Position numbers and translations under genes: made by a program. The notes under the pieces were generated by a model, which saw nothing but the letters and a program-made list of their open reading frames with translations, was not told the origin of the DNA and searched no databases. Of a stretch of 47,070 nt of DNA, positions 38,241 to 47,070 are shown piece by piece; position 1 is the stretch's first letter; the number at the start of each line of letters is the position of its first letter. The DNA comes from Gemmatimonadaceae bacterium (lineage in GTDB: Bacteria; Gemmatimonadota; Gemmatimonadetes; Gemmatimonadales; Gemmatimonadaceae). The DNA is taken from NCBI GenBank assembly GCA_040901985.1, contig JBBDYC010000010.1, positions 1-47,070 of the forward strand, in the 5' to 3' direction.

Positions 38241-40355
38241 GTGTACCGCGTCCCCGTCGCGTCCCTCTATTTCTTCCTGTCCTTCGCAGCCCTGCAAACG
38301 ATGAACGCCCAGCAACCCCCGGTCGCCCGTCGGATCCCGGCGGTCACCACGCTCCACGGCGAAACGCGCACCGACCCCTACGCCTACTTCCGCGACAAGG
38401 GGCACCCCGAGACGATCCCCTACCTCGAGCGCGAGAACGCGTACACCGAGGCGATGACCGCGCACACCAAGGCGCTCGAGCAGCAGCTCTACGACGAGAT
38501 CATCGGACGGATCAAGGAGGACGATTCCAACGTCCCGGTGAAGCGCGGCGAGTGGTTCTACTACTCGCGCACGGAGCGGGGCAAGCAGTACCCCATCTAC
38601 GCCCGCAAGCGCGGGTCGCTCGAGGCGCCGGAGGAGATCTACTTTGACCAGAACAAGGAGGCCGAGGGATTCAGCTTCTATGCGCTCGGCGGAATGGAAG
38701 TCTCACCGGACCACCAGCGTCTTGCCGTGCTCGTGGACACGACCGGCTACGAGGACTTCACCCTCCAGGTGAAGGACCTCCGGACCGGGGCGTGGCTCGC
38801 CGACCGGATCGAGAAACTGGCCTTTGGCCTCGCGTGGGCCAGCGACAACCGGACGCTGTTCTACCTGACGATGGACTCCGCCAAGCGCGGCGACCAGGTG
38901 TGGCGCCACGTGGTCGGGACGCCGCGCGCGGAGGACGTGTCGGTCTACCACGAGCGCGACGTGCTGTTCAACGCCGACGTCTCGCGTGAGCGCAGTGACG
39001 AATGGATCATCGTCGGGAGCAGCTCGTTCACCTCGGCGGAGTGGTACGCGATTCCGGCGGGCGAGCCGACCGCCGCGCCCCGCCTGATTGCCGCGCGGCG
39101 GCCGGGGGTCGAGTACTCGGTGAGCGCCGGCGCCGGCTTCTTCTATATCCACACCAATGAGAATGCGACGAACTTCAAGGTGATGCGCGCGCCATTCGAT
39201 GCGACCACGCCGGCGCAGTGGGAGGAGTGGGTCGCGCACAACGACGACGCCTTCATCGAGGGCGTGCTGCCGTTCCGCGAGCACGTCGTGGTGATACAGC
39301 GGCGCGAGGGCCTGCGCCGGCTCGCCGTGACCGACCTCGCCGGCGGGATCGCGCACGAGATCACGTTCCCGGAGGCGGCGTACGGCGTGTTCCCGTCGGG
39401 GAACCCGGAGTTCAACACCCGCACCCTGCGCTTCGCCTACAGCTCGATGGTGACGCCGAACTCGGTGTTCGACTATGCGATGGACACGCGGGCGCGCGAG
39501 CTCAGGAAGCGTGATGAGGTGCTCGGTGGCTTCGACCCCAACCGCTATGAGGTCGAGCGGACCTTTGCCACCGCCCGCGACGGCGCGCGCGTCCCCGTCT
39601 CACTCGTCTACCGGAAAGGGCTGGTGCGTGACGGCAAGCGGCCGCTCCTCCTCTACGCCTATGGATCGTACGGCGCGACGATGGAGCCGACGTTCAGTTC
39701 GGTGCGCTTCTCGCTCATTGACCGCGACTTCATCTACGCCATCGCCCACGTGCGCGGCGGCGAGGAGATGGGACGGCGCTGGTACGACGAGGGGAAGATG
39801 CTGCATAAGATGAACACGTTCACCGACTTCATTGACGTGGCCGAGCACCTGGTCCGCGAACGGTATACCTCGCCGGACCGTCTCGCCGCGAATGGCGGGA
39901 GCGCGGGCGGGCTCCTGATGGGCGCGGTGGCCAACCTGCGCCCCGACCTCTTCAAGGTGATCGTCGCCGACGTGCCGTTCGTGGACGTGATCAACACGAT
40001 GCTCGACGCCAGCATCCCGCTCACCGCCCAGGAGTGGGAGCAGTGGGGCAACCCGGCGATTCCCGAGCACTATCGGTATATGCGGCAGTATTCGCCCTAC
40101 GACAACGTTGAGCCGAAGGCGTATCCGCGGATGCTCGTGATGAGCGGGATCAACGACTCACGGGTGGCATACTGGGAGCCGACCAAGTGGGTGGCGTTGC
40201 TGCGCGCCACCAAGACCGACGCCAACCCGCTCCTCCTGAAGATGAACATGGGTGCCGGGCACGGTGGCGGCTCGGGTCGCTATGAGCGTTACCGCGAGAT
40301 GGCGTTCCGGTACGCGTTCATCGTGGACCAGACGCTGCAGGGCTTGGTGCAGTAG
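38241..40355 (+). CDS. ptrB: Oligopeptidase B (S9A), secreted
   Basis: HGETRTDPY, YGSYG, HVRGGEEMG, GGSAGG, NDSRVAYWEP, GAGHGG; signal peptide MNA-Q. Confidence 0.93.
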   Translation: MYRVPVASLYFFLSFAALQTMNAQQPPVARRIPAVTTLHGETRTDPYAYFRDKGHPETIPYLERENAYTEAMTAHTKALEQQLYDEIIGRIKEDDSNVPVKRGEWFYYSRTERGKQYPIYARKRGSLEAPEEIYFDQNKEAEGFSFYALGGMEVSPDHQRLAVLVDTTGYEDFTLQVKDLRTGAWLADRIEKLAFGLAWASDNRTLFYLTMDSAKRGDQVWRHVVGTPRAEDVSVYHERDVLFNADVSRERSDEWIIVGSSSFTSAEWYAIPAGEPTAAPRLIAARRPGVEYSVSAGAGFFYIHTNENATNFKVMRAPFDATTPAQWEEWVAHNDDAFIEGVLPFREHVVVIQRREGLRRLAVTDLAGGIAHEITFPEAAYGVFPSGNPEFNTRTLRFAYSSMVTPNSVFDYAMDTRARELRKRDEVLGGFDPNRYEVERTFATARDGARVPVSLVYRKGLVRDGKRPLLLYAYGSYGATMEPTFSSVRFSLIDRDFIYAIAHVRGGEEMGRRWYDEGKMLHKMNTFTDFIDVAEHLVRERYTSPDRLAANGGSAGGLLMGAVANLRPDLFKVIVADVPFVDVINTMLDASIPLTAQEWEQWGNPAIPEHYRYMRQYSPYDNVEPKAYPRMLVMSGINDSRVAYWEPTKWVALLRATKTDANPLLLKMNMGAGHGGGSGRYERYREMAFRYAFIVDQTLQGLVQ

Positions 40356-40376
40356 CCGTGGTTGCGGCGTCGCCAC

Positions 40377-41768
40377 CTAGAGCTGTTTCACCTCGGTGAC
40401 GAGCTTCGTCAGCGTCCCCTTCGCGTCCCCAAAGAGCATCTGCGTCTTGGGGTCGTAGAACAGTTCGTTCTCGATCCCCGCGAAGCCCGCCGACATCCCA
40501 CGCTTCATCACGATGATCCGCTTGGCGTGGTCGGCGTTGAGGATCGGCATCCCGTGGATCGGGCTCGACGGGTCGTTGCGCGCCGCCGGGTTCACCACGT
40601 CGTTCGCCCCGATCACCAGCGCCACGTCGGCGCGGTCGAACTCCGGATTGATGTCGTCCATGTCGAGCAGCTTGTCGTACGGGATGTTCGCCTCGGCGAG
40701 GAGCACGTTCATATGCCCCGGCATCCGGCCGGCCACCGGGTGGATCGCGAACTTGACCGTGCCGCCGCGCTTCTCGATCAGGTCCATCAGCTCACGCACC
40801 TGGTGTTGCGCCTGGGCCACCGCCAGCCCATAGCCGGGCACGACAATCACGAGCTGGGCGTAGCCAAGCTGCAGCGCCGCCTCCTCGATGTTGGTCGTGT
40901 TCACCGACAGGCCTGCCGCACTCTTGGCGCCCACGGTGACCGTCGCCCCGAAGCCACCGAAGAGCACGTTGGCGAGCGACCGATTCATTGCCCGGCACAT
41001 GATCTGGCTGAGGATGATCCCCGACGAGCCGACGAGGGCGCCGCTGACGATCAGCACCTCGTTCCGGATCACGAACCCCGTCATCGCCGCGGCGATCCCC
41101 GAGTACGAGTTGAGCACCGCGATCACGACCGGCATATCGGCGCCGCCGATCGGGATGACCAGGAGGATACCGAGCAGCAGCGCGAGGACGATGAGCGCGT
41201 AGAAGAACATCAGCGGCGCCGCTGGGTCGGCGACCACATAGGCGCCGATCGCGAGGATGGCGAGGAAGATCGTCGCGTTGATCGTCTTTTGAAACGGGAA
41301 GACCACCGCGCGCCCCGCCATCAACTCCTGGAGCTTGGCGAAGGCAATCACGCTCCCGGTCACCGTCACCGCGCCGATCAGCACGCCGATCTGGGTCGAG
41401 AGGGCGACGTCGAACGTCACGCTCAGGCCGCGGTCCTCGACGTGGAGGAATTCCGCGCTCGCGACGAGGAGCGATGCGCCGCCGCCGGCGCCGTTCAGGA
41501 GGGCGACCATCTGTGGCATCGCGGTCATCTTCACCAGCCGCGCCATAGACAGCCCGATCGCGCCGCCGACAATCAGCCCGGCGATGATCGTCGTGTACCC
41601 GACGATGGTCTGGTCGAGCAGGGTGACGGTGAGCGCAATCAGCATCCCCGTCGCCGAGATGCGGTTGCCGAGGCGCGCCGTCTCCGGGCTCTGCAGTCTC
41701 CGCAACCCGAGGATGAAGAGGACCGCCGCCGTCAGGTAGAGGAGCCGCGCCAGCCAGGGGGCAATCAC
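40377..41768 (-). CDS. pntB: NAD(P) transhydrogenase beta subunit
   Basis: KMTAMPQMVA, IGGADMPVVI, VPGYGLAVAQAQH, HPVAGRMPGHMNVLLAE, GANDVVNP. Confidence 0.97.
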   Translation of the reverse strand: MIAPWLARLLYLTAAVLFILGLRRLQSPETARLGNRISATGMLIALTVTLLDQTIVGYTTIIAGLIVGGAIGLSMARLVKMTAMPQMVALLNGAGGGASLLVASAEFLHVEDRGLSVTFDVALSTQIGVLIGAVTVTGSVIAFAKLQELMAGRAVVFPFQKTINATIFLAILAIGAYVVADPAAPLMFFYALIVLALLLGILLVIPIGGADMPVVIAVLNSYSGIAAAMTGFVIRNEVLIVSGALVGSSGIILSQIMCRAMNRSLANVLFGGFGATVTVGAKSAAGLSVNTTNIEEAALQLGYAQLVIVVPGYGLAVAQAQHQVRELMDLIEKRGGTVKFAIHPVAGRMPGHMNVLLAEANIPYDKLLDMDDINPEFDRADVALVIGANDVVNPAARNDPSSPIHGMPILNADHAKRIIVMKRGMSAGFAGIENELFYDPKTQMLFGDAKGTLTKLVTEVKQL

Positions 41769-42064
41769 TTGGCGTCCTCCCGCGGGCTCTTCTTGAACAT
41801 CTCCAGCATCCGGTCCGTGACCGTGTAGCCGCCGACCACGTTCATCATCGCGAAGACGATGGCGAGGAAGCCGAGCACGCTGGAGAGCCAGCCGAACCCG
41901 GCGCCGGCGACGAGCAACGCGCCCACCACGGTGATCCCGGAGACCGCGTTTGCCCCCGACATCAGCGGCGTGTGGAGCGTCGGCGGCACCCGCCCGATGA
42001 GCGAGGCGCCGAGGAAGGTGGCGAGGACGAAGACGACGATCCCGCCAATCAGCACATCAGTCAT
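41765..42064 (-). CDS. pntA: NAD(P) transhydrogenase alpha subunit part 2 (membrane)
   Basis: VPPTLHTPLMSGANAVSG, NVVGGYTVTDRMLEMF. Confidence 0.95.
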   Translation of the reverse strand: MTDVLIGGIVVFVLATFLGASLIGRVPPTLHTPLMSGANAVSGITVVGALLVAGAGFGWLSSVLGFLAIVFAMMNVVGGYTVTDRMLEMFKKSPREDAK

Positions 42065-43161
42065 CAGGAGGCCCTCTTGCCGGTGACCATCATCGCGCCC
42101 GTGATCTCGTCGGCGGCGTCCACGTGGAGCGCGCCGTCCTTCAACAGGTGTTGCACGAACGTCAGGATGTTGCGGGAGAGCATCTGCGACGCGTGCGTCG
42201 GCATCAGCGCCGGCAGGTTCAGCGGGCCGATCACCTGCACGCCGCCCACCTGGACCGTCTCGCCGGGCCGGGTGGCCTCGCAATTGCCGCCGCTCTCGGC
42301 GGCGAGGTCCACGATGACCGCGCCCGGGTTCATCGTGCGCACCGTGGCGGTGGAGATGAGACGGGGCGCCGCGCGGCCCGGGATCGCCGCCGTGGTGATG
42401 ACCAGATCCATCCCCTTCAGATGTTCGCGCAACGCGGCCTGGATGGCCTCCTGCTGCTCCTTCGTCTGCTCCTTGGCGTAGCCGCCCGCCGTCTCGGCGT
42501 CCTGCGCAATCAGTTCCTGGGCGACGACCGTGGCGCCGAGCGAGCGGATCTGTTCGGCCGCCGCGGCGCGGATGTCGAACGCCGAGACGATGCCGCCGAG
42601 GCGGCGCGCGGTCGCGATGGCCTGGAGGCCGGCGACGCCGGCACCGAGGACGCACACCTTGGACGGCGCGATCGTGCCGGCCGCCGTCGTGAGCATCGGC
42701 AGGAACTTGCCCAGTGCCGACGCGCCGACGAGCACGGCCTTGTAGCCGGAGACCGTGGCTTGCGAGGAGAGCACGTCCATGGACTGCGCGCGGGTGATGC
42801 GCGGGACGAGTTCCAGCGCGAAGGCGGTGACGCCCCGCGCCTCGAGCGCCGCAATCTCCTCCGCGCTCGACGAGGGCTGCAGCAGCGACACGAGATGCGC
42901 GCCGCGCTTGAGCTTGGCGGTCTCGTCGGCGGAGGGCTTCTGGACCTTGCAGACAAAGTCGGCGGTGGAGAGCACCGTCTCCCGGTCGCTCGGTTTGCCG
43001 CCCACCCAGGTGTAGGTCTCGTCCGGGAATCCGGCGCGCGCACCGGCGCCGCGTTCGACGAGGACCGTGACGCCGGCCTTCACGAGTTTGCCGACGGCTT
43101 CGGGGATGAGGGCGACACGTGCTTCGCCCGGGGTGCGTTCAGCGGGGATTCCGAGGATCAT
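42064..43161 (-). CDS. pntA: NAD(P) transhydrogenase alpha subunit part 1 (domain I)
   Basis: PRITRAQSMDVLSSQ, GAGVAGLQAIATARRLG, DLAAESGGNC. Confidence 0.96.
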   Translation of the reverse strand: MILGIPAERTPGEARVALIPEAVGKLVKAGVTVLVERGAGARAGFPDETYTWVGGKPSDRETVLSTADFVCKVQKPSADETAKLKRGAHLVSLLQPSSSAEEIAALEARGVTAFALELVPRITRAQSMDVLSSQATVSGYKAVLVGASALGKFLPMLTTAAGTIAPSKVCVLGAGVAGLQAIATARRLGGIVSAFDIRAAAAEQIRSLGATVVAQELIAQDAETAGGYAKEQTKEQQEAIQAALREHLKGMDLVITTAAIPGRAAPRLISTATVRTMNPGAVIVDLAAESGGNCEATRPGETVQVGGVQVIGPLNLPALMPTHASQMLSRNILTFVQHLLKDGALHVDAADEITGAMMVTGKRAS

Positions 43162-43360: not shown

Positions 43361-43535
43361 TGTCACCGTGTGACGGTCCCAATCTGTTGCGTGGCAATGG
43401 TTTAGCGCTGACCAAATTGACCGGACTGATATAAAACGGTGCAATGTCGTGACTTACGACTTGAGCTTGCACCGAATGTCACAATGTGACCTAAGTCTCA
43501 GTGTGCAAACAAGATACACTGGCATGCGAAGTGCC
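43361..43535 (+). promoter_or_regulatory. Candidate sigma54 promoter with IHF-like site and two palindromic boxes
   Basis: TGTCAC-N3-GTGAC at 43361-43374 and 43477-43490; CAA-TCTG-TTG-N5-CAA-TGGT-TTA at 43380-43404; TGGCATGCGAAGTGCC (GG-N10-GC) at 43520-43535. Confidence 0.6.
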
Positions 43536-43716: not shown

Positions 43717-44286
43717 ATGTCGAAGTACTTGGTTCGATTGGTGACGGGGCTCGCGGTAGTCGCGATGCCGATGGTGGCGGTGGAGGCGCAGACGTGCTCG
43801 CGGATCAACGGCGTCAACAGCGGCAGCTGCAGCGTGGACGCGAACCTCACGGTGCCCACCATCGTGACCCTGACGGTCCCGGCGTCGATCGTTGTTGACC
43901 CGATCGCCGACTGGAACGCGTTCTTCACGGCGGGCGTGGTCGACTCGACGTATAACGAGATCGGCCTCACGGTGCGCTCGAACGTCGGCGACGTGGCGCT
44001 GACCGTCACGGCGAGCGCGCTGAGCGGTACAGCCGCAGGCGTGGCGGGCAACACCCGTACGTTCGCGGACTATGGCTACAAGGTGCTGGCGGCGGGCACC
44101 TGCACGGCGGACGGCTATACCGCGTTCACCGGAGCGGCCCAGGCCCTCTCGTCCATCCCGACCGGCCCGTTGGATGCGCCGACGCTCACGCTCTGCGTGG
44201 CGGCGGAGTTCGATCCGGCTGACCTGACGACGCTCCGCGCCGGTGTCTATACACTGCCGCTGGCCGTCATCATCACCGGCCCGTAA
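43717..44286 (+). CDS. Secreted beta-rich protein, candidate major pilin/fibre subunit
   Basis: RBS GAGGAG; signal peptide VEA-Q; 189 aa, T/A/G/V rich; four Cys; C-terminal strand AGVYTLPLAVIITGP. Confidence 0.7.
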   Translation: MSKYLVRLVTGLAVVAMPMVAVEAQTCSRINGVNSGSCSVDANLTVPTIVTLTVPASIVVDPIADWNAFFTAGVVDSTYNEIGLTVRSNVGDVALTVTASALSGTAAGVAGNTRTFADYGYKVLAAGTCTADGYTAFTGAAQALSSIPTGPLDAPTLTLCVAAEFDPADLTTLRAGVYTLPLAVIITGP

Positions 44287-44314
44287 TCGCACGACGCGCC
44301 CCGGAAGAGTGCCG

Positions 44315-45166
44315 ATGCGCCAGTGCGCGAAGGCATCGCGAGCAGTCCTGGGATCCACCGGCACACTGGTGATGATCCTGGGGCTGCTCGCACTTCCGGG
44401 CGGTCGCGTGGACGCGCAGGTCGCCGTTGATGTGCTCGAACGCCACATCGTGCTCGGCCGCGACCCGCTGAGCCAGGTGATTGGCGTCCGCAACGAGACC
44501 GATTCGGTGCAACAGGTGCAGGTCTCGGTGCAGGACTGGGAACGCGACTCCCTGGGGAACAACGTCTTCGTGGACCTGGGGACGTTGGACGCGAGCTGCG
44601 GGGACCGACTCGAGGTCTTCCCGCGCACGCTGCAGATCGGACCGCAGCGGACCGAGAACCTCCGGGTCACCTACCGCCCGACCGGCGTGTCGGACGAAGG
44701 GTGCTGGGGGATCGTGATGATCGAGCCCGTCCGGCCGCCAATCACGGCGACCGGTGCGCGGTCAACCGCGGTGATCACGGTGCTGACGGGCGTCAAGATC
44801 TACGTGCGTCGCTCGGACGCCACGATCGCCGGCACCATCGAGTTCGCTGATGTCGAGGCGTCCTGGCTTCCCGCTGCCGCGGGGAAGCCGGCAGCCGACT
44901 CCACGATGGTGCAAGACGTGGTCGTGCGCTTCGTGAGCACCGGCACCGACCATATGCGACTGACCTCGGTGTTCGAGATCCGCGACGACCGTACGCAACT
45001 CGTCGCGCGAATCAACGGGCCCGTGGCCTATCTCACGCCCGGCGCGTTCCGGGATCTCCTCGTCCGGGTGCCGGAGCTCCCGCGCGGCCGCTACGTCGCG
45101 GTCGTGCTCGTGGATTTCGGTGACGACGAGGTCCAGGCTGCCCAAGTCGAATTCGAGGTGCCGTGA
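44315..45166 (+). CDS. PapD-like two-Ig-domain periplasmic chaperone
   Basis: Signal ending VDA-Q; VRN...VQDW, LEVFPRTLQIGPQ..ENLRV, WGIVMIE, GVKIYVR (compare PapD IKLFYRP), second Ig domain ending GRYVAVVLVDFG. Confidence 0.72.
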   Translation: MRQCAKASRAVLGSTGTLVMILGLLALPGGRVDAQVAVDVLERHIVLGRDPLSQVIGVRNETDSVQQVQVSVQDWERDSLGNNVFVDLGTLDASCGDRLEVFPRTLQIGPQRTENLRVTYRPTGVSDEGCWGIVMIEPVRPPITATGARSTAVITVLTGVKIYVRRSDATIAGTIEFADVEASWLPAAAGKPAADSTMVQDVVVRFVSTGTDHMRLTSVFEIRDDRTQLVARINGPVAYLTPGAFRDLLVRVPELPRGRYVAVVLVDFGDDEVQAAQVEFEVP

Positions 45167-45669
45167 TGCGCCGCAGCCTCCGCGTCGCCGGAGTCTGTGG
45201 AGCCGTCCTCCTCGCCGCCACGGTGGGGGTGGCCCCCACGCTCCACGGCCAGACGAACCGGCTCACGGTCCTCACGCTCTCGGGCTTTCCGCTGACCGTG
45301 AGCACCACGACGCCGGCGGACTTCGATGCCGGCAGCGTCCCGCTCGGGACGACCGGGTTCACCGTGGACCTGACGTCGAACGCCGGCCCTGGCTTCGCGA
45401 CCCGCGTCACGACCGTGAATGTGCAGTGCGGGCTCCCCTGTCCGGCTGGCGTCACGTCGTTGCAGTGGCGGCGCAACGACCTCAGCGTCTGGAACACGCT
45501 CACCACGAGCTTCGCCCTCGTCGAGTCGCGGACCGCGACCTTCAACGGCGTGAACGACCCGTGGTCGAACTCGATGCTCTGGCGCTATCTCGTCGGCTGG
45601 ACCACCAACCCACCAGCGCCGACGGAACAGTACCTGATCACGTTCCAGCTCGTGGTGACTGCCCCGTGA
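45163..45669 (+). CDS. Secreted beta-rich protein, candidate minor pilin
   Basis: Start overlaps the chaperone stop; signal LHG-Q; TPADFDAG; Cys pair; C-terminal EQYLITFQLVVTAP parallels the first subunit. Confidence 0.7.
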   Translation: MMRRSLRVAGVCGAVLLAATVGVAPTLHGQTNRLTVLTLSGFPLTVSTTTPADFDAGSVPLGTTGFTVDLTSNAGPGFATRVTTVNVQCGLPCPAGVTSLQWRRNDLSVWNTLTTSFALVESRTATFNGVNDPWSNSMLWRYLVGWTTNPPAPTEQYLITFQLVVTAP

Positions 45670-47016
45670 CGCGCCTTGCGATCCGCGGCCTCCTGGCAAT
45701 GCTCCTTGGCGTCGGCGCCCCGGCCGGGCTGGGCGCGCACGGGCGTGCCGCCGACGTGCTTCGCCTGCCGCCGGTGACGATTGCGGGGGCTCCGCGCTCG
45801 CTGGTGACGTTCGCGATCGCGGTGCCCGCTGAGGTCGAGGCGGCGGCCGGACTGCGCTACCAGGTCGAGCTCCGCGGGGCCACCGAGGTGCTCGGTCGCC
45901 TCGAGGGCGAACTCGCCGAGGGCCGCCGCCAGATCGTGCTGACCCTGCGCGTCCCCGCCGACGCCCGCGTCGGTCTCCTCGACGTGGCCGACGTCATATT
46001 CCGCGGTGCCGACGGCGAGGTCGTGATCGTCCCAATCATCCTGCGCGTCCCCGCCGTCCGGGCAATGCGAATCACCGGGCCGCCGATGTACGCGGACCTC
46101 CGGCAGGGTGATCGCGTCGAGATCGCGTTCCGGATCCAGAATCTCGGCAACGCCCCGGAGGAGGTGGAGGTCCACGTGACCCCGCCGTCCGGGTGGCTGA
46201 TGCGCACGCCCCGCGTCACCGTCGTGCGGATGGAGCCGTTCGGCTCCCGTGACGTGAACGTCCGTCTCTCCGTGCCGGCCGCCGCCGACGGCGGCGACTA
46301 CTACGTGGCGGGCTCGGTGCGGCCGCGAAGCGGGGCGGACTCGGCGGTCGCCGTGTCGGCGTCGACGCGGCTGCAGGTCCGCGCGCGCGAGACGCGCGAG
46401 CCGGGCCTCAAGTTCTCCCCGTTTGTCGCGGCGGCCACGAGCTATGGCGGCACCGCCGTGGCCACCGGGTTCGGCCTCCACGGACCGATTGCCGACAACG
46501 TGCGGCTCTCATTGCAGGTCCTCCCCTTCGCCTCCTCGACCAATTCCGGCGGACTTGGCCTGGCCGGAGTCGGCGGAATCGGCGTTCCCGTCCAGGCCGC
46601 CGTCTTCGGCGACGGATGGAACGTCATCGCCGGGAACACGTCCGCACGGATCTCCGACCTCACGGGGATGAACGTCGTCGGGGTCGGCGCGCAGGCCTCG
46701 CTGAACCGGTCCGGTCGAGAGGCGATTGTGCTCGCGTCACGGCCAATCAGTGGCACCGGCCAGACCGGCGAACACCTCGGCGCGGGCGCGTGGTGGAACA
46801 CGGCGTTCGGGCGCGTCGGCGGTTCGGCGTCGCAACTGCGCGAGTCGTATAACGGTGCGATCTCGCGGGAACTGACTGCGGTCGGCGCCGATTGGACGTC
46901 GCACCCCGTCAAGGACTGGGTTCTCGATGGCGGGCTCGCGGTGCGACAAGTAAACGATGCCGCACATCTCGGGTATCGCGTCCAGGCACTCCGCGAAGGC
47001 GACGGGCAACGGGTCC
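45666..47016 (+). CDS. Large exported protein (partial): Ig/NEW3-like domains then beta-barrel-like region; candidate non-canonical usher
   Basis: Not in ORF track (no stop before the window end). GTG overlaps the upstream stop. Own translation MTRLAIRGLLAMLLGVG..., VLTLRVPADARVG, FRIQNLGNAPE...PPSGW...LSVPAAADGGDY, then Gly/aromatic amphipathic strands. Confidence 0.75.

Positions 47017-47070
<54 letters not shown>

Follow-up and report, generated by a model that had tools for sequence, protein, structure and literature searches.

We describe a six-gene operon at the end of a 47,070-nucleotide stretch of DNA (the window; positions 1-47070 of contig JBBDYC010000010.1, hereafter C10) from a Gemmatimonadaceae genome of 2.64 Mb that is 99.97% complete. 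The operon probably encodes a donor-strand pilus assembled by an usher; judging largely from structure models, we put the probability of this reading at roughly 78%. Its genes encode, in order, a pilin (gene 1), a chaperone (gene 2), a second pilin (gene 3), a barrel protein (gene 4), a lipoprotein (gene 5) and a third pilin (gene 6). Our verdict is that it acts like a chaperone–usher system and, by the features tested, stands outside the classical, alternative and archaic families: we do not file it with any of these because the tests for the usher family, an inserted plug, the chaperone residue Arg89, the SCPU pilin domain and a two-domain adhesin all fail. A sequence-only reading of the window had proposed a four-gene donor-strand fibre system with a different secretion platform. 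The four genes are real, but the operon has six, adding the lipoprotein and the third pilin; the interpretation itself is supported, and relatives are found outside the phylum as well. No description of this system was found in the literature searched (most subscription journals and supplements lay outside the search).

Pilins

In the AlphaFold2 model of gene 1 (predicted local distance difference test score, pLDDT, 89; predicted template modelling score, pTM, 0.77), mature residues 1-25 show no secondary structure. The folds nearest to it, at Z 7.6 to 6.7, belong for the most part to donor-strand pilins, the leading ones being tied: CsuA/B (Z 7.6), CupE (7.5), the FimH pilin domain (7.3) and TLP-1b (7.3). 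CfaB and EcpA are also near, CfaB being the best Foldseek match (E 1.5e-3), and the core (residues 26-162) aligns to residues 15-155 of CsuA/B. Mature positions 18, 20 and 22 are hydrophobic in 85, 98 and 94% of 52 pilin sequences; the pilins of genes 1 and 6 have one Cys that never varies and another that is found in 51 of the 52 sequences, and in both a strand of alternating hydrophobic residues precedes the core. Gene 1 is thus predicted to encode a chaperone–usher-type pilin with an incomplete immunoglobulin (Ig) fold and a free N-terminal donor strand. It is likely the major shaft subunit, because it stands first in the operon, has a ribosome site of the GGAG type and is not coupled to its neighbour by a start/stop overlap.

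Gene 3 is clearly, from its sequence, a paralogue of the gene 1 pilin that lacks the donor strand: in HHalign it matches the pilin profile with a probability of 98.4 (E 6.7e-15), the alignment beginning at pilin residue 24, past the donor strand, and its homologues show the same truncation by eye. Of the two subunits proposed for the donor-strand fibre, gene 1 is predicted to carry a donor strand, but gene 3 has none. The D..(A)F..AG motif said to link these two proteins is real (NAFFTAG aligns with ADFDAG) but loose. A subunit unable to donate a strand must come first in the chaperone–usher pathway, and gene 3 is therefore the likely tip or initiator subunit.

We found no two-domain tip adhesin: the three pilins are single-domain proteins of 167-189 aa with leader, and there is no other profile match in the genome, a search that covers relatives of the pilin profile (an unrelated, unlinked adhesin falls outside it). 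Among 31 pilins there is no match to the WxL domain and one to SCPU (PF05229; E 0.024), the positive control, a cluster of genome G291, giving E 3e-28.

Chaperone and its predicted complex with the pilin

The gene 2 protein of the window matches no Pfam or NCBIfam family. It had been called PapD-like, and both its homologues and its profile agree: PapD_N is found in eight out of 32 homologues (best E 2.5e-6), and comparison of the gene 2 profile with PDB gives EcpB (E 0.0011), YadV (0.017) and FaeE (1.4). Its Atlas structure has a template modelling (TM) score of 0.84 to a Deinococcota ‘pili assembly chaperone’ cluster, predicted structures standing on both sides of this comparison.

The predicted complex of gene 2 with residues 22-165 of gene 1 scores 0.75, versus 0.00 for the best of three controls; the mark was reached by 116 out of 157 solved complexes and by two out of 215 mismatched pairs, a rough calibration (our own alignments were used here). 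Between runs, 93% or more of the contacts agree, and the pLDDT of the partners is at least 79. Residues 148-161 of gene 2, which end in the GVK motif, lie parallel to the last strand of the pilin, a pairing that is predicted to be donor-strand complementation by the chaperone G1 strand. The GVKIYVR strand of the chaperone and the C-terminal strands of two pilins that the sequence-only reading had quoted are all present, and its view of the subunits as incomplete and of the donor-strand type holds at the level of the models, given the unstructured N-terminal 25 residues and the pairing of the chaperone strand with the last strand of the pilin.

The superfamily Pro is kept in 41 out of 42 gene 2 homologues. 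Classical chaperones (PapD, FimC, Caf1M) anchor the carboxylate of the subunit by an Arg/Lys pair. In gene 2, the Lys at the end of YadV G1 has Lys161 as its aligned counterpart (39 of 42), whereas the N-terminal partner position is apparently Glu42 (36 of 42), compared by eye with the PapD pattern. Archaic and alternative chaperones carry, in strand F of their first domain, a characteristic conserved Arg89 (PMC4654587). The corresponding column (29 residues past the invariant Pro in EcpB) has Ser in 20, Ala in 10 and Gly in six of the 42 sequences and lacks the Arg signature; its placement rests on the weak EcpB alignment (E 0.0011) and an inferred numbering offset. Going by that alignment, the anchor appears to match neither described chaperone type fully. 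None of the 32 chaperones matches WxLIP, and no C-terminal hydrophobic helix is seen in their alignment; distant relatives of the chaperone do match DUF916/WxLIP.

Gene 4, a predicted usher-like barrel

Because the window's own gene 4 is interrupted by an assembly gap, we folded an intact relative, L022 (57% identical), with 79/126 full-length sequences. In the model (pLDDT 91.3, pTM 0.66), two beta domains at the N-terminus are followed by 26 consecutive strands at residues 227-685 (by DSSP, two of them short) and by two beta domains at the C-terminus. Foldseek ranks 1-10 are all FimD or PapC (E 1.3e-13 to 6.5e-10), and VIA aligns residues 226-874 to residues 137-833 of FimD (Z 13.2, root mean square deviation (rmsd) 9.8, 430 residues). 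The membrane-type barrel expected in this protein is thus seen in the model of the relative, by Foldseek and by VIA.

NEW3 (residues 146-219 of window gene 4, E 3e-9) is the sole match of the four window proteins in Pfam and NCBIfam, so that none of them, as had been anticipated, has a strong match to the canonical Fim/Csu families there. Two NEW3-like Ig domains had been claimed: the second is this match, but the first is Ig-like by model only. Among 17 gene 4 homologues, Pfam gives NEW3 in 14, SdrD_B in 15 and CarboxypepD_reg in nine; the usher family PF00577 is found in none of the 17 at E 0.01 (the G291 usher, as positive control, gives E 8e-17) and nowhere in the window's own genome.

In ushers, the plug is an insertion of about 80 residues. 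The gene 4 barrel, as modelled, would have no such plug domain, because the stretches between its strands (at most 31 residues in 79 sequences) are too short for one. TonB-dependent receptors align from model residue 113-135 (only the end points of the ranges are given), a hint that NEW3 might act as plug. The usher of a DUF4402 cluster has C-terminal domains homologous to the two found here (HHalign 96.9%, E 1.3e-10). A barrel with a C-terminal periplasmic domain pair, predicted in the same operon, would fit the general chaperone–usher pathway. Our reading of gene 4, based on these models, is an usher relative with a rebuilt front half. The ‘different secretion platform’ of the sequence-only reading does differ from known ushers, but it looks like a structurally related variant, not an unrelated one. 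For the gene 5 lipoprotein, Pfam and PDB gave no match.

Weighing the alternatives

Several points weigh against an usher-assembled pilus. The gene 1 fold Z-scores are all below 8, and no Foldseek match reaches E 0.001. The complex score, obtained with the pilin trimmed to 22-165, may reflect likeness to solved chaperone–pilin pairs. By Z the best VIA fit of the barrel is MtrB (16.2, rmsd 5.0, 414 residues), itself a barrel of 26 strands; nine porin-type entries separate it from FimD, and the TM-score of the L022 model to ushers is only 0.25-0.32. In sequence, the barrel profile has no similarity to one archaic usher (HHalign E 0.14), and when the usher profile was searched against PDB sequences the SdrD-type domains alone were significant, the barrel matching no PDB usher. 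The usher model is that of a relative, with pTM 0.66, an uncertain domain placement and a strand count taken from DSSP. The functional reading is a model throughout.

The alternative that survives best, an unlikely one in our view, is a far-diverged archaic (sigma) or DUF4402-type chaperone–usher system whose 26-strand, plug-less build is an error of modelling or counting. It would explain why the tied nearest folds of the pilin include CsuA/B and CupE and why the gene 4 C-terminal domains match the usher of a DUF4402 cluster. A fimbrial classification of 2007 is said to put sigma ushers in Deinococcus-Thermus. This group, home of relatives of the operon (see below), is reported to have archaic systems (PMC4654587), and in one of our controls Deinococcus radiodurans gave a PF00577 match below the cut-off. 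PF00577, however, is absent from the gene 4 homologues at a cut-off that a true archaic usher of the same phylum passes easily; the 31-residue limit between strands comes from 79 sequences and leaves no room for a plug; SCPU is close to absent from the pilins (1/31); and the Arg89 column has Ser, Ala or Gly.

Somewhat less probable still is that the barrel only exports chaperone-primed subunits, which then assemble by themselves outside into a short tip-like complex or a TasA-like matrix fibre, with no growth catalysed by an usher. TasA and TLP-1 are indeed among the fold neighbours of the pilin, non-usher pores match the barrel as well by Z, and both a plug and a two-domain adhesin are lacking. 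This explanation sits poorly with the usher-typical domain pair that follows the barrel and with the retention of a donor-less subunit, which fits ordered, tip-first assembly. A non-fibre envelope complex, i.e. an uptake or scaffold pore with a lipoprotein and periplasmic Ig partners, is very improbable: MtrB tops the VIA list, TonB-dependent receptors align with the model and the operon has a lipoprotein gene, yet no haem-binding, TonB or substrate-binding partner is seen among the six genes, the chaperone–pilin model shows strand complementation, and there are three pilin paralogues with or without donor strand in a fixed pattern.

Comparison with known systems

The operon resembles the classical Fim/Pap systems (FimD, PapC) in the pilin fold, in a two-domain chaperone with predicted G1 donation, invariant Pro and G1-end Lys, and in a barrel followed by two C-terminal domains, FimD and PapC being the best Foldseek matches of gene 4. 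The usher is described as a 24-stranded barrel with an internal plug (PMC13721041). Unlike FimD and PapC, gene 4 appears to form a barrel of about 26 strands into which no plug is inserted, with two Ig domains at the N-terminus and an SdrD-B-like domain at the C-terminus, and it does not match PF00577; unlike classical pili, the operon has no two-domain adhesin and has an extra lipoprotein.

With the archaic and alternative systems (Csu, CupE; CFA/I, ECP) it shares near pilin folds (CsuA/B, CupE, CfaB, EcpA) and the best chaperone match, EcpB. It differs from Csu, CupE, CFA/I and ECP in having no Arg89 carboxylate anchor at the aligned column and no SCPU, and its usher differs from theirs as it does from FimD/PapC; instead of an adhesin of the CsuE/CfaE type found in Csu and CFA/I, it has a single-domain donor-less subunit.

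TLP-1a and TLP-1b are environmental fibrils of unknown source (PDB 9IKJ, 9IKK) built by donor-strand exchange, whose closest predicted model is a Flavobacteriales protein; the assembly genes are not given in the available portion of that paper (PMC11494351). TLP-1 gives the longest structural alignment of gene 1 (150 residues, Z 7.3, rmsd 4.2), TLP-1b and TLP-1a are the two best PDB sequence matches of the pilin profile (E 0.038 and 0.24), and Bacteroidota hold look-alikes of the gene 2 chaperone and the barrel. The TLP-1 protein is, however, longer (237 versus 165 residues here, at 13% identity), and it forms an 8-nm tubular fibre by n+4 donation. A Deinococcus pilin searched against TLP-1 by phmmer gave no match, and the distant chaperones looked up came, where named, from Gemmatimonadota. 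PDB entry 9IKK is distinct from the glycofibril that a preprint names TLP-2 (bioRxiv 10.1101/2025.09.30.679562).

Chaperone-guided donor-strand exchange outside Proteobacteria is also described for the WxL (Elr) pili of Bacillota (bioRxiv 10.64898/2026.10.17.759780) and for the Pam pili of bacteria of the candidate phyla radiation (PMC13278184), the latter with a predicted single-domain tip pilin. Unlike the chaperones of WxL and Pam pili, which are membrane-anchored and work with no usher, the gene 2 chaperone lacks a membrane segment at its C-terminus and is accompanied by a barrel. The WxL pili are given as confined to Bacillota, and the available portion of that preprint has no mention of ‘Gemmatimonad-’. 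Judged by its protein families, the operon is not a WxL system. As a separate observation, plasmid matches H32, H33 and H39-H47 are distant relatives of the chaperone in Arthrobacter, Streptomyces and Nonomuraea, two of them annotated as DUF916; WxL-like pili in Actinomycetota, beyond the range given by the WxL preprint, are possible.

Proposed mechanism

In an usher-assembled donor-strand pilus, the gene 2 chaperone would complete the Ig fold of each pilin by its G1 strand (modelled for gene 1 only), and the chaperone–pilin pairs would dock on the gene 4 protein, where a structural match is predicted. The donor-less gene 3 subunit would, by chaperone–usher logic, enter first and cap the tip; gene 1 subunits would make the shaft, the N-terminal strand of each fitting into the preceding subunit; and the gene 6 pilin may adapt or end the fibre. 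Since the barrel of about 26 strands seems to have no inserted plug, gating might come from another part, most likely NEW3 (the second of the two Ig domains at the N-terminus) or the lipoprotein, the most speculative step of the scheme. The fibre would likely serve attachment to surfaces or biofilm.

A wider picture is tentative, and taken jointly we think it somewhat improbable: that the operon is a fourth branch of the chaperone–usher pathway, with a 26-strand usher gated by the N-terminal NEW3 domain or the lipoprotein in place of a plug; that it spans Gemmatimonadota, Deinococcota, Bacteroidota and Synergistota and is the main chaperone–usher route in Gemmatimonadota; that it builds TLP-1-type fibrils; and that its chaperone connects the chaperone–usher pili of Gram-negative bacteria with the WxL pili of Gram-positive ones.

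Conservation and distribution

The chaperone gene is found in 25 out of 61 relatives including the window's own genome, and in 23 out of 36 within the genus. Across the phylum, 45 out of 301 genomes match its profile, and for 23 the match is at E < 1e-40; some of the homologues already carry the automatic name PapD chaperone. We fetched 41 loci (our own, 20 from the survey of relatives and 20 from that of the phylum), all picked as chaperone matches, so that gene-order counts measure linkage and not prevalence. By profile search, the full order of pilin, chaperone, donor-less pilin, barrel, lipoprotein and pilin occurs in 27 of the 41 loci, and the chaperone is followed by the barrel gene in 38; the gene order is thus conserved, as the sequence-only reading required. 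The other 14 loci comprise three cut by contig ends, two with gene 3 undetected in a 500-bp gap, four rearranged or without the lipoprotein, three of a second subtype and two orphan chaperone genes.

In the second subtype (L075, L076, L077), the pilins have no Cys-Cys loop, the chaperone has neither the Lys nor the Cys pair, and there is a NEW3-barrel gene; the subtype is present in Longimicrobium-type proteins, and its nearest plasmid match is a Deinococcus deserti cluster. Other variants include two tandem clusters in one genome, extra pilins and a reversed lipoprotein gene (L064 4535-18000 and L071 3285-10628, the cluster adjoining groEL, named by eye, in both loci); a tandem duplicate of gene 3 (L025, L026); and poly-glutamine tails at the end of barrel proteins (L029, L036, L037). 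One genus also has, in several of its genomes, isolated genes that match the C-terminal domain of the chaperone and no other part of it (e.g. L078 8466-9044).

PF00577 is found in two out of 301 phylum genomes, sampled as for the chaperone profile. One is a canonical archaic cluster (SCPU/PapD_N/Usher; genome G291, L083 5607-10283), the only one above the cut-off among the 301; the other has DUF4402 pilins, a chaperone and a weakly PF00577-positive usher (genome G170, L084 6563-10907). This DUF4402 cluster is possibly a bridge between usher types, because the C-terminal domains of its usher match the gene 4 family.

Outside the phylum, chaperone searches of plasmids match Deinococcus, and the three plasmid regions that we fetched all have a related core: pilin-sized gene(s), a chaperone and a large gene matching the usher profile (E 2e-22 to 9e-30). 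Their pilins match the pilin profile weakly, in D. deserti none at E 0.01, and tblastn of plasmids with the barrel as query gave no match. Atlas look-alikes of the chaperone and the barrel come from Bacteroidota, Synergistota, Deinococcota and others, as structures without gene context.

Locus layout and assembly gap

Four co-oriented genes for secreted proteins do occupy window positions 43717..47016, as the sequence-only reading had them (Table 1), and export leaders can be read by eye on all six products. The last three of the four are coupled by the stop/start overlaps claimed, TGATG or GTGA between genes 2 and 3 and GTGA between genes 3 and 4; genes 5 and 6 are coupled likewise, and 22-28 nt separate genes 1 and 2. 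All four window genes are coding, because in comparison with the closest relative fetched they differ most at third codon positions (0.49-0.61, versus 0.20-0.30 at second positions) and synonymous changes occur at about half of the identical residues.

Table 1. Features of the pilus operon and its upstream region (window positions unless contig C10 is named)
Feature	Position	Strand	Remarks
Palindrome GTCAC-N3-GTGAC, copy 1	43362..43374		355 bp before gene 1
Palindrome GTCAC-N3-GTGAC, copy 2	43478..43490		239 bp before gene 1
Gene 1, putative pilin: signal peptide, Cys-Cys loop, predicted N-terminal donor-strand extension	43717..44286	+	189 aa
Gene 2, putative two-domain PapD-like periplasmic chaperone	44315..45166	+	283 aa; alternative start GTG 44309
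Gene 3, single-domain pilin paralogue without Cys-Cys loop and without donor strand	45166..45669	+	167 aa; 168 from GTG 45163
Gene 4, in-window part: signal peptide, two Ig domains (second NEW3), first half of usher-like barrel	45666..47015	+
Poly-G artefact preceding N10 scaffold gap	47016..47070		contig 47016-47105
Gene 4, remainder beyond window: barrel second half, SdrD-B-like and carboxypeptidase-regulatory-like domains	contig C10 47106-48503	+	465 codons
Gene 5, lipoprotein, beyond window	contig C10 48500-48916	+	138 aa
Gene 6, third pilin, with donor strand, beyond window	contig C10 48913-49458	+

Gene 4 runs for 450 clean codons up to the poly-G tract, and the whole protein has about 923 aa. 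A frameshift or pseudogene reading of this end was rejected: the poly-G is an assembly artefact, and the gene resumes after the gap. By BLAST, 90 nt of assembly (contig 47016-47105) occupy the place of eight codons in intact relatives, and several other gaps of the same assembly are also flanked by poly-G or poly-C. In the sole run containing this DNA, no contig bridges the gap, contigs stopping on both sides at depths of 22.7 and 22.5. The full fourth gene could thus be recovered from its continuation to contig position 48503 and from relatives, but not from the reads; its intactness in its own genome is inferred, because no read contig spans the gap.

A terminator search at the operon gave chance level only, and a sigma-70 promoter scan gave no sites. 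The neighbours at window 38241-43161 are, from their translations, presumably the genes of oligopeptidase B and of NAD(P) transhydrogenase, with those of the transhydrogenase divergent from the operon. After gene 6 lies a convergent gene (minus strand, contig C10 49479-49967; L001 6480-6968) for a 162-aa secreted protein with a donor-strand-like N-terminus, no Cys pair and no Pfam match. By profile, such a pilin-type or similar convergent gene follows gene 6 in seven out of 41 loci including our own (and, by eye, in L074); it is possibly a terminator or accessory subunit.

Upstream palindromes

The palindrome GTCAC-N3-GTGAC has two exact copies in the whole genome, both in front of this operon and 116 bp apart. 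Exact copies precede gene 1 in five out of 35 loci (0.04 expected from shuffles); when one mismatch is allowed, this rises to 13 out of 35 (0.71 expected), counts that include the discovery locus and related loci that are not independent. The 116-bp pair also occurs in relatives L032 (exact) and L024 (one mismatch each). The pair is a candidate regulator site.

Significance

That the usher pore has 24 strands and that an inserted plug gates it have been treated as fixed features of the chaperone–usher pathway. If gene 4 encodes a working usher with neither feature, the picture of the mechanism and the evolutionary history of the pathway changes, and the operon, as modelled, would be an undescribed branch of a textbook pathway. 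The gene 4 family escapes the usher models of Pfam and NCBIfam: PF00577 marks two out of 301 genomes, versus 23 for the chaperone profile (E < 1e-40), so what is probably adhesion machinery goes unnoticed in a phylum common in soil and sediment. The operon also suggests one specific way in which the orphan TLP-1 fibrils may be made, and the related core in cultured, harmless Deinococcus strains (such as D. deserti VCD115, DEIDE_RS15110-15120) makes the system directly testable.

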